From Armatimonadota bacterium (GTDB taxonomy: Bacteria; Armatimonadota; UBA10988): a DNA stretch of 64,000 nucleotides. The notes beneath the pieces are model-generated. The model was given only the letters and a program-made list of their open reading frames with translations, searched no databases and was not told the DNA's origin. A program made the translations under genes and the position numbers. Numbering within the stretch: position 1 is the first letter of the stretch; each line of letters starts with the position of its first letter. The stretch lies in NCBI GenBank assembly GCA_016235455.1, contig JACRKZ010000029.1:4183-68182 (forward strand), written 5' to 3'. Below are positions 19,163 through 21,158 of this stretch, piece after piece.

Positions 19163-19196
19163 CAGTAGGGGCGACCGACGGTGGTCGCCCCTACTG
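19163..19196. terminator. bidirectional hairpin between convergent genes (14-bp perfect stem CAGTAGGGGCGACC / GGTCGCCCCTACTG, 6-nt loop)
   Basis: Seen in the sequence. It starts 10 nt after the GH2 stop and overlaps the last codons of the minus-strand membrane-protein gene. No U-tract. Confidence 0.45.
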
Positions 19197-21158
19197 CTGG
19201 AAGCTGTACGTGGGCACGCCGGCGATCCAGCCATAGACCGGCCACAGGCACCCCACGACGTAGTCGCCCAGCACCAGCCCGATGAAGAACGGCAGCGCCC
19301 GCCGATAGCCGCGGATGCCCCCGTAGCGCAGGATCAGGCTCTTGGCGCACCAGGCGATGAGCATCGGCACCCACACCATGCCCATCGAGTAAGTACCAGC
19401 GATGGCCAGACCCAACGGATGGAACGGCCAGCGCGCCCAACGCAGCCGCACCACCTGCAGCAGGCCCGCCTCGACCAGGCCCACCAGCAGCGCAATCGAC
19501 GCCGACGCATCGGGCGGCACGGGATTGGTCAGCCAGCCATCCAGCCGGTTGAACGCCTCGCTGCCGAAGTACCGTAGGTGTCCAGCCATCTTGGCCGCCA
19601 CGCCCCAGCGGTAACCCAGGTCCAGATGCGCCCAGAACCCGCACAGCGTGCCCACGACCGTAGCGATGAGCAACGGCGCGAGCATGGCGCGCGGTGGCTG
19701 ATGTTGGGTCTGCGCTAGCTTGAAGCTCTCTATCTGGTGCGCGATGGGGATGCTGCGGTAGGCGCGGTTGAACCAGTAGAAGTAGGTCAGCGCGCCCAAC
19801 TCGCGCGCCGTGAAGCCGCGCGGGCCGAAGAACGTGGTCAGCAGCCGCTCAGGGCCGGCGAAGTGCAGATCGTGCGCCGGCGGACCCAACTCCGCGCGCA
19901 TCCGCGCACAGGCCAGCGCGATCAGCAGGTACAGCACCATGGCCGACAATGACCAGCCCCAGGGCAGCCCGGCACGCTGGAAGAACCAAGCCAGCCAGAT
20001 CGTGCCCGCTGCCAGACCGAACCACGCCAGGCGATAGCTGATCAACTCGCGGTCGCGCTCATCGGCCAGCGGCTGCCAGATGGCGCGCAAGACCTGCGCC
20101 ACATAGCGTCGACCCGTCCACAGTGCGGTCAGTGCCACGGCCAGATAGGCGCCGACGCACTGCTCCTCGACATACGGGAAGCGCGGGATGGCGCCCGACA
20201 GCCCGACCATGGCGCCGGTGACGCGCTGGGCTTTGAAGAACAGGTAGAAGAACCAGCACGAGAACAGCAAATCCACGGGCAGCATGAAGCCCAGGCCGAC
20301 CGCGAACGGATAGAAACTGACCGGCGTCCAGCCAATGGCACTCCACGGGCGTTCGGTGATGGACGGGCCGATGTCGTGGGCGCGAACAGTCAGCGTGGGC
20401 AGCGCCGGAATGAGCTGAGCCAGGCCATTGAGCAGCGTGATGCCGCCGGCTACCGCGATGCCCTGCCACAGGCCGGGCTGGCGCCACAGCGCCGCCTCAT
20501 CGTCGCACAGCGCCAGTGGCACGGCCAGCACGGGAAACGCCAGGCGCTCGTGGTCGGTCCACCGTCTCCGCATGATCGACGCCAGACAGGCCATCGTGCC
20601 CAGCAGCACGGCGATGAACGTGCTCCACAGCACCACCGGCGGCGCCCAGGCGCGCAGGTGGCGCGGCAGGTAGAGGCTGGTGTTCCCCTCATACCAGCCC
20701 CGCAACGCACCAGCATCGCGCACGATGAAGCCCGGTGCCAGGTTGGGGATCAACCGCTCGACCCAGCGGTTGCTGCCGTCGGCGAAGCGCACCGGGTGGC
20801 CGATCATCGGGACCAGCACATCGAGGAAGTCGACGCTGACGATGGCTGAGCCGATGCACAGCATGACGTAGACGGTCAGCAGTTCCGTCGCGCTCAGCGC
20901 CGCCGACGGCCGCACGCGCAGCAGCAGCCGGTTGAGCCCCACCAGCAGCACGAGCCACAGCACCACGTTGCCGAACAGCGAGAATGTCGTCGGGTAGGGT
21001 CCGCCCGAACGGCCCATCTCCATCTGCACGAGCAGGAAGGCATTGGCCGGCAGGAGCAGCGTGCCGAGCGCCACGGCCCGCACGCTGACCCCGCGTCGAC
21101 CACCCTTGACCGTGCCGCCAGCCGCCAACTGCCCGCTCCGCGGGTGGCGTTCGCCCAA
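19191..21158 (-). CDS. large polytopic integral membrane protein, uncharacterised family (paralog of 43341-45194)
   Basis: Many TM segments. Conserved blocks are shared with the paralog (ERLAFPV, FYPFAVGLGFMLP, RAELGPPAHDL). By alignment to the paralog the real start is probably near 21089 (GTG). Confidence 0.7.
   Translation of the reverse strand: MGERHPRSGQLAAGGTVKGGRRGVSVRAVALGTLLLPANAFLLVQMEMGRSGGPYPTTFSLFGNVVLWLVLLVGLNRLLLRVRPSAALSATELLTVYVMLCIGSAIVSVDFLDVLVPMIGHPVRFADGSNRWVERLIPNLAPGFIVRDAGALRGWYEGNTSLYLPRHLRAWAPPVVLWSTFIAVLLGTMACLASIMRRRWTDHERLAFPVLAVPLALCDDEAALWRQPGLWQGIAVAGGITLLNGLAQLIPALPTLTVRAHDIGPSITERPWSAIGWTPVSFYPFAVGLGFMLPVDLLFSCWFFYLFFKAQRVTGAMVGLSGAIPRFPYVEEQCVGAYLAVALTALWTGRRYVAQVLRAIWQPLADERDRELISYRLAWFGLAAGTIWLAWFFQRAGLPWGWSLSAMVLYLLIALACARMRAELGPPAHDLHFAGPERLLTTFFGPRGFTARELGALTYFYWFNRAYRSIPIAHQIESFKLAQTQHQPPRAMLAPLLIATVVGTLCGFWAHLDLGYRWGVAAKMAGHLRYFGSEAFNRLDGWLTNPVPPDASASIALLVGLVEAGLLQVVRLRWARWPFHPLGLAIAGTYSMGMVWVPMLIAWCAKSLILRYGGIRGYRRALPFFIGLVLGDYVVGCLWPVYGWIAGVPTYSFQQ

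Follow-up and report, generated by a model that had tools for sequence, protein, structure and literature searches.

Two long genes for polytopic membrane proteins, each encoded beside glycoside hydrolase (GH) genes in an Armatimonadota genome, raise the question of what such proteins do and whether carbohydrates are their substrates. The genes, called A and B here, lie in a stretch of 64,000 nucleotides (the window; contig JACRKZ010000029.1 of assembly GCA_016235455.1, positions 4,183 to 68,182). The initial annotation of the window had suggested that their products form an uncharacterised family of saccharide or oligosaccharide transporters that recurrently pair with GHs. We found the proteins to be transporter-like in kind, as that proposal held; however, their family is already catalogued and is predicted to be a divergent branch of a known fold, that of the OPT superfamily. 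Taken overall, A and B are very probably importers with this fold, and their substrates may be glycan breakdown products.

A and B are paralogues from a catalogued family

Codon-position GC analysis of the window (G+C content about 69%) indicated one genuine gene at the A site and one at the B site. The maximal open reading frame (ORF) of A extends over 19191-21158 on the minus strand. Because a 100% identical database copy (P0001) is 645 aa long, the start was placed at a TTG codon at 21128; an alternative GTG start is possible at 21083. For B, a protein with 100% identity is annotated in an Armatimonadetes metagenome-assembled genome (P0121, locus tag HZB16_04775). When A trimmed to 632 aa (from 21089) was compared by BLASTP with the 617-aa B, so that the starts were comparable, the two proteins aligned end to end over 636 columns with 39% identity (E 4e-135, far past chance), which bears out the earlier claim of two paralogous polytopic membrane proteins at these sites. 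No further copy of the family was detected in the window by tblastn, and candidates for a third copy, such as 27079-29058 and 50870-52804, were ruled out by Pfam as well as by tblastn. Around the A and B loci, scans for promoters and terminators gave nothing over the shuffled expectation.

A carries the motifs ERLAFPVL, FYPFAVGLGFMLP and RAELGPPAHDL, and B carries ERLSFPIV, YYPFAIGLGFLMP and RAEFGPPCHDL. The last motif of each protein had been quoted exactly in the initial annotation and the other two with one-residue slips. At least 12 transmembrane (TM) segments had also been assigned to each protein. A Kyte-Doolittle scan found 12 strongly hydrophobic 19-mers in A but 10 in B, and the structure models described below contain about 20 helices of mixed length and show more membrane helices than the hydropathy scan finds.

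In Pfam searches, A matched DUF6785 (PF20581, 493.5 bits) and DUF6784 (PF20580, 104 bits), B matched the same two models (405.7 and 95.2 bits, respectively), and nothing else matched either protein; the gathering cut-offs are 25 and 26.4. DUF6785 covers about 500 residues and DUF6784 the following 100 or so, and together they match A and B end to end. Both models were also matched by all of the approximately 240 homologues listed. An NCBIfam search of A and B gave no match, and a literature search on DUF6785 and DUF6784 found, in the library searched, no paper that names either domain. By these sequence comparisons, A and B are ordinary members of a catalogued family without an assigned function, and the genes themselves are not new. 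The statement that they resemble no MFS, SSS or ABC permease held, since neither Pfam nor NCBIfam gave such a match and no such fold was matched. Identity as a glycosyltransferase of family C (GT-C), an O-antigen polymerase (Wzy) or a MOP flippase was likewise rejected, as no such Pfam family or fold was matched. The same search with hidden Markov models (HMMs) nevertheless showed that the family had already been catalogued as DUF6785 plus DUF6784.

The family has many members: a profile built from 37 of them and searched against 1.84 billion representatives found 6,854 clusters (at 50% identity) at E<=1e-3 and 4,900 at E<=1e-10. Matches with a named source came nearly all from Armatimonadota (Fimbriimonadaceae and Chthonomonadales), with some from Planctomycetota, Brocadiia and Poribacteria. 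Single assemblies contributed two to three loci to the best 80, indicating that several paralogues per genome are normal. In a neighbour-joining tree, the B clade was deep and stood apart from the clade holding A, indicating that A and B are ancient paralogues and not the products of a recent duplication. A metagenome scan for B-clade loci returned two short contigs only, without recognisable neighbours of the type seen in the window. Large size and several copies per genome are what is typically seen in uptake systems that have diversified in substrate among saccharolytic Armatimonadota (PMC4959169).

Structure models match the OPT/Yellow Stripe fold

Models of A and B were predicted with AlphaFold2 (AF2) without templates. 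The model of A, built from the alignment of 37 sequences, had a predicted local distance difference test score (pLDDT) of 88.2 and a predicted template modelling score (pTM) of 0.90; the corresponding scores for B were 79 and 0.84, so that both models are confident. Foldseek comparison of such models with transporter folds had been proposed as a check, and it found a known fold: the hit was barley Yellow Stripe 1 (HvYS1; 7wst/7wsr) with an E-value of about 1e-9 and a TM-score of 0.69-0.72, and no other match fell below E 0.05. Identity in the structural alignments was approximately 10-12%. The 7WSR entry was released in late 2022, which we take to be after the AF2 training cut-off; as the models were template-free and this entry post-dates the training, the match should be independent. 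HvYS1 belongs to the OPT superfamily (TC 2.A.67) and is a proton-coupled importer of iron-phytosiderophore, and the authors of its structure found neither the YS core nor the scaffold domain to have a structural homologue (PMC9691689). The fold match is thus specific.

According to the models, DUF6785 and DUF6784 are the N- and C-terminal parts of one OPT-type fold, and the family has diverged very far within the OPT/YSL fold, beyond detection by sequence, rather than representing a new fold. Like the OPT proteins, A and B are polytopic, and their lengths (617-645 aa) fit the size of prokaryotic OPTs, which have 620-690 aa and 16 (or 17) TM segments (PMC3061005); the hydropathy scan of A and B picks out just 10-12 strongly hydrophobic segments. 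They differ from HvYS1 in that their family is bacterial (Armatimonadota and Planctomycetota), whereas the OPT relative is plant/fungal, and in that their gene context points to carbohydrate use rather than to iron or peptide use.

The pattern of conservation could be set against the same structure. Among 37 diverse members, the charged or polar residues E24, D87, R174, R289, E400, H406, D407, R442, R445, H557 and K583 were invariant, and D90, D273 and D609 were conserved in at least 90% of the sequences. Many conserved charged or polar residues lie in or beside predicted helices, and an equivalent set is kept in the B clade. The most conserved motifs were ME...G..GPYP (residues 23-34) and RMRAELGPPAHDLH..GP (residues 396-413). 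In the AF2 model of A, each of them lies at the end of a long helix that is followed by an extended loop of lower confidence and then by a second helix. In HvYS1, the hairpins TM1-H1 and TM8-H6 flank the substrate and proton sites (PMC9691689). The two helix-loop-helix elements in the model of A resemble these hairpins and may correspond to them.

Proposed function and the neighbours of A and B

On the strength of the modelled OPT/YSL-type architecture, A and B are very probably secondary importers. The most likely function is to move small hydrophilic organic nutrients into the cell, by secondary active transport across the cytoplasmic membrane. The authors of the HvYS1 structure propose an elevator mechanism in which core aspartates are the proton sites (PMC9691689), and by analogy a mobile core domain of A and B would carry substrate past a scaffold domain in a proton-coupled elevator; we infer the direction of import, the proton coupling and the elevator itself from this likeness. 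The separate clades of paralogues probably have different substrates. Export, flippase and enzymatic roles are unlikely because of the fold. If A and B exported or flipped glycoconjugates or polysaccharide precursors, or were membrane enzymes resembling glycosyltransferases or polymerases, their large polytopic form and carbohydrate-rich surroundings would fit, and a GT2 gene is indeed present in one orthologue locus. However, neither protein has a Pfam match to Wzy, Wzx/MOP, PMT or GT-C, and polysaccharide-biosynthesis neighbours were not conserved in the surveyed loci, so that such roles appear highly improbable.

The neighbours of both genes in the window (Table 1) point to carbohydrate use. 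Pfam matches and junction coordinates agreed with those named in the initial annotation, i.e., a GH29-like fucosidase beside A, and an aldo/keto reductase (AKR) and a cytoplasmic GH32-like enzyme beside B. The GH29-like fucosidase gene immediately precedes A on its strand, approximately 66 nt away, and the N-terminus of its product, MTLMTVVASHLLMAGIVAP, is signal-peptide-like with one hydrophobic segment. The GH2 beta-galactosidase gene is convergent with A (37 nt between the stop codons), and no TM segment or signal peptide was found in its product by the scan. B is separated from the AKR gene by 4 nt and from the GH32-like gene by 12 nt. The scan likewise detected neither a signal peptide nor a TM segment in the GH32-like enzyme, whose NCBIfam match to scrB_fam (8e-16) was far under the cut-off.

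A may take up a breakdown product of fucosylated or galactosylated glycans, with the exported GH29 acting outside and the cytoplasmic GH2 inside. B may take up a fructoside or hexoside, which would be cleaved in the cytoplasm by the GH32-like enzyme and reduced by the AKR. This role would resemble that of the MFS (LacY, FucP) and GPH sugar/H+ symporters, in which protons drive sugars or oligosaccharides into the cell for the cytoplasmic glycosidases encoded alongside. The neighbours give a weak indication that the substrates are carbohydrates, and glycan breakdown products as substrates are plausible but fall a little short of probable.

Eight B-clade contexts, the window included, were viewed. 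Besides the AKR and GH32-like genes of the window, the same-strand flanks comprised a HAD phosphatase gene at +1, a GH130 gene at +1 and a URO-D-like gene at -1 (positions relative to the DUF6785 gene). A Peripla_BP_1/4 gene overlaps the start codon of the B-clade gene in L085/L086, and an SBP_bac_1 gene is at -1 in L095/L096; one more locus has divergent LamG/GH123/BetaGal-like genes. A GH130 or GH32-like gene was adjacent in two of the eight contexts. URO-D-like genes (uroporphyrinogen decarboxylase family) also recur within a few genes of DUF6785 at several loci (L003, L024, L034, L059, L081, L085, L087 and L092), with the gene at -1 on the same strand in L092 and two copies each in L003 and L059.

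Glycoside hydrolase linkage across the family

To survey contexts, 80 loci were taken from GTDB species genomes, genes were called with a codon-position GC filter, and 779 predicted proteins were clustered. Fucosidase genes were concentrated in one part of the tree. GH29 genes occurred in 7 of 79 loci, six of them within the superclade of A. GH29/GH95 fucosidases were present in 6 of the 20 loci of this superclade versus 1 of 59 elsewhere (Fisher p 8e-4), and the GH29 enrichment persisted after two near-identical loci were merged (p 0.003). The position of GH29 relative to DUF6785 varied (-6, -3, -2, +1 and +2). In three loci (L004, L007 and L008, two of them near-identical), DUF6785 stands in a same-strand array with GH29, GH95 (which is another fucosidase family) and a bona fide GH32. 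Tblastn with the GH29, GH2 and AKR proteins of the window found no match in the 80 related loci; for GH29, the miss arose because the window gene is too divergent, and clustering at the Pfam level was needed.

Several observations weigh against the import of glycan breakdown products by an OPT-type protein. With regard to the fold, Pfam OPT (PF03169) did not match A or B at E<=1, and the family profile found no OPT/YSL chain, 7WSR included, among PDB sequences at E<=10, the only match being a chance one to KtrA (E 0.9). An internal N/C repeat was not detected when residues 1-300 and 301-632 of the family alignment were compared by hhalign (probability 0.2%, E 0.28). Characterised OPT members transport peptides, glutathione, folate or metal chelates, never sugars (PMC3061005). 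With regard to the window, 5-6 of its approximately 46 genes encode GHs, so some adjacency to GHs is expected by chance, and the sugar-type ABC importer encoded beside the B operon could instead supply the GH32-like enzyme.

The remaining points of this kind concern the family-wide survey. The 67 genes at -1 match 83 Pfam families and are thus very heterogeneous, and same-strand neighbours within 200 nt across 79 loci include housekeeping genes, among them those for adenylosuccinate synthetase, MreB, ribonucleotide reductase, RNase III, leucyl-tRNA synthetase (LeuRS), IMP dehydrogenase (IMPDH) and PrmC. GHs made up about 4 of 40 close same-strand upstream neighbours (GH95, DUF5722, GH32 and GH30) and 2 of 41 downstream (GH29 and NAGPA), a total of about 6 of 81 versus 0 of 41 in a distal control, which was not significant (one-sided p about 0.08). 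The control consisted of 41 random genes at least 4 positions away, with no GH among the 25 of its 36 families that were listed. GH29 was not adjacent in the nearest orthologues of A (58-81% identical). The 81% orthologue is preceded by a protein without a Pfam match (1,345 aa; L081, 3985-8022), whose gene overlaps the orthologue's start and occupies the position of GH29 in the window. EAL/HDOD and GmrSD genes flank the 68% orthologue, and others are near GFO_IDH_MocA, AP_endonuc_2 or CorA genes or a convergent, weakly alpha-amylase-like gene. Retention of a GH partner by each paralogue in its orthologues was thus ruled out for the nearest orthologues of A.

These results mean that the recurring GH pairing claimed for the two paralogues fails across the family and survives as a clade-level tendency towards carbohydrate-processing neighbours. 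The genome of Chthonomonas calidirosea has been described as 'disorganised' and non-operonic (PMC4959169), and the heterogeneous neighbours of DUF6785 fit this description; gene context is weak evidence in this phylum.

The same observations bear on the main alternative, in which the OPT-like A and B import peptides, glycopeptides or metal chelates and the adjacency to GHs arises incidentally from a genome that is rich in GHs and poor in operons. The single structural relative belongs to the OPT family, whose known substrates are peptides and chelates, the neighbours across the family are heterogeneous, and Armatimonadetes genomes are described as disorganised (PMC4959169); the GH content of the window itself would also favour chance adjacency. 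Some neighbours are peptidases (M60, M20 and, directly downstream in five Planctomycetota loci, a giant M28/FtsX protein). However, no peptide-catabolic or siderophore genes lie beside A or B in the window. The GH29/GH95 association is clade-specific and has been rearranged many times, the AKR-B-GH32-like operon is tight, and sugar-type solute-binding proteins (SBPs), GH130 and a HAD phosphatase adjoin B-clade genes. We consider peptide or chelate import possible but rather unlikely, and we favour import of glycan breakdown products by A and B.

A candidate extracytoplasmic partner in part of the family

Genes for pseudopilin-like proteins (N_methyl/DUF1559) were enriched directly upstream of DUF6785, at 6 of 72 genes at -1 versus 10 of 628 elsewhere in the same loci (p 0.003), and at 9 of 138 when -1 and -2 were combined (p 0.001). 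They were mostly on the same strand and scattered over the tree (L018, L027, L030, L035, L036, L040, L043 and L064). Two such genes occur in the window, the second (3965-4621, minus strand) away from A and B. The product of the one downstream of B (Table 1) also matched SBP_bac_10 (5e-14), over profile positions 2-33 only.

These findings raise the possibility of binding-protein-assisted secondary transport, in which the OPT-fold unit would take its substrate from a pseudopilin-like or SBP partner encoded upstream, as in TRAP and TTT systems. Enrichment at -1 in several clades of the tree, the SBP_bac_1 and Peripla_BP_1/4 genes adjoining B-clade genes as described above, and the presence of such genes near B in the window (46842-47519 and 39800-42289) are consistent with it. 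As in TRAP and TTT, the gene for an extracytoplasmic protein lies directly upstream of that for a secondary-transporter-like protein, in a minority of loci; however, the DUF6785 family has no homology to DctQM or TctAB, and the partnership is statistical only. Most loci, that of A included, have no such gene. The DUF1559 profile was matched over its first 30-70 positions only, so that an SBP-like fold is not established for the pseudopilin-like proteins. Furthermore, the N_methyl/DUF1559 and SBP families are very abundant in these phyla, adjoining SBPs may serve ABC systems (BPD_transp_2 is next door in L085), and HvYS1 works without a binding protein (PMC9691689). On this evidence, a binding-protein partnership seems improbable as an account of the family.

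Other features of the window and of the surveyed loci

Table 1. Features in and around the A and B loci of the window.
Feature	Coordinates	Strand	Evidence and remarks
Paralogue A	19191..21128	(-)	DUF6785+DUF6784 polytopic membrane protein, predicted OPT/YSL fold; candidate starts 21083, 21128, 21158
Paralogue B	43341..45194	(+)	DUF6785+DUF6784 protein, 617 aa; deep clade separate from that of A
GH29-like alpha-L-fucosidase, 481-491 aa	21195..22640 (ORF to 22670)	(-)	Pfam Alpha_L_fucos 9e-12 (above cut-off) and C-terminal F5_F8_type_C lectin domain 2e-11
Cytoplasmic LacZ-type GH2 beta-galactosidase, 1,227 aa	15470..19153	(+)	Pfam GH2 domains; NCBIfam beta_gal_Bga2A E 8e-289
Aldo/keto reductase (AKR)	42266..43336	(+)	Pfam Aldo_ket_red 2e-13; stop codon 4 nt ahead of B start
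Divergent GH32-clan (beta-fructosidase-like) enzyme, 421 aa	45207..46472	(+)	Pfam Glyco_hydro_32N 6e-24, GH43 2e-6
ABC importer genes, sugar-type	38529..42289	(-), divergent from AKR-B-GH32-like operon	Pfam; NCBIfam UgpA/UgpB/MalE-like; third-codon-position GC and TM scan
Pseudopilin-like protein, N_methyl motif and start of DUF1559	46842..47519	(+), two genes downstream of B	Pfam N_methyl 2e-8; NCBIfam GspG/pilin N-terminus

The GH2 beta-galactosidase carries an extra Laminin_G_3 (concanavalin-like) insert at residues 583-740, at the boundary between the catalytic barrel and domain 4. The true start of the AKR is probably near 42422 (MAQLETR...). In the ABC importer, 39800-42289 (minus strand) is a single unusual ORF of 829 aa that fuses SBP_bac_1 (residues 66-377) to a BPD_transp_1 permease (residues 521-815), and 38529-39851 (minus strand) encodes a second permease with 9 TM segments; an ATPase gene was not seen near this pair. 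The SBP part of the fusion is homologous to the SBP encoded just upstream of the B-clade gene in L095 (29% identity, E 2.5e-43).

Two paralogous membrane proteins with a weak bPH_6 domain (22695-23639 and 25544-26458, both minus strand) flank a pectate-lyase-fold gene (23547-25550), and the gene for one of them immediately precedes the GH29-A pair. On the strand of the B operon and downstream of it, 47619-50339 (plus) encodes a 906-aa protein with FAD_oxidored and a C-terminal DUF7402. Elsewhere in the window a deoxy-sugar theme was seen at 707-2323 (minus), 4812-5870 (plus), 5740-6210 (plus) and 56931-60149 (plus), with members comprising an Arabinose_Iso_C-domain protein, a LacI-family regulator, an L-rhamnose mutarotase (rhaM) and a 1,072-aa protein with a sub-threshold match to GH106 rhamnosidase; an Fe-ADH gene is also present.

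Among the surveyed loci, five from one Planctomycetota/Brocadiia clade (L046, L048, L050, L067 and L070) encode a protein of approximately 1,500 aa combining an FtsX-like permease with Peptidase_M28 at +1 or +2 of DUF6785 on the same strand. One of them, L050, has tandem DUF6785 genes (4106-5854 and 8001-9884). In three related loci (L043, L051 and L052), a gene for a Rex-like redox repressor (Put_DNA-bind_N plus CoA_binding) is at +1 of DUF6785 on the same strand.

Significance

Relative to the literature searched, what is new is the assignment, by structure models, of DUF6785 plus DUF6784 to the OPT/YSL fold, together with the recognition of a bacterial branch that is large, present in several copies per genome, variable in gene context and inclined in its neighbours towards carbohydrate metabolism. 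This does not amount to a new class of system. Roughly 5,000-7,000 sequence clusters that have so far been labelled DUF would gain a concrete fold and a proposed proton symport mechanism of the OPT/YSL type. As HvYS1 is the sole solved representative of the fold, a bacterial sister family would also offer many tractable prokaryotic targets for work on structure and mechanism.

Should the substrates prove to be sugars, the OPT fold would have a wider chemistry than is known so far. A more specific picture, in which this bacterial branch of the fold has turned to oligosaccharide import (for example of fucosylated, galactosyl or fructosyl/mannosyl glycans) and part of the family works with an upstream-encoded extracytoplasmic partner, is unlikely; if true, it would add a substrate class never shown for the OPT fold and, alongside TRAP and TTT, a third type of secondary transporter assisted by binding proteins. 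The Armatimonadota and Planctomycetota are abundant and break down complex glycans, but little is understood of their uptake systems, and operon logic is of limited help in reading their genomes. It is for these bacteria that a predicted fold and a candidate importer role for DUF6785 proteins would matter.

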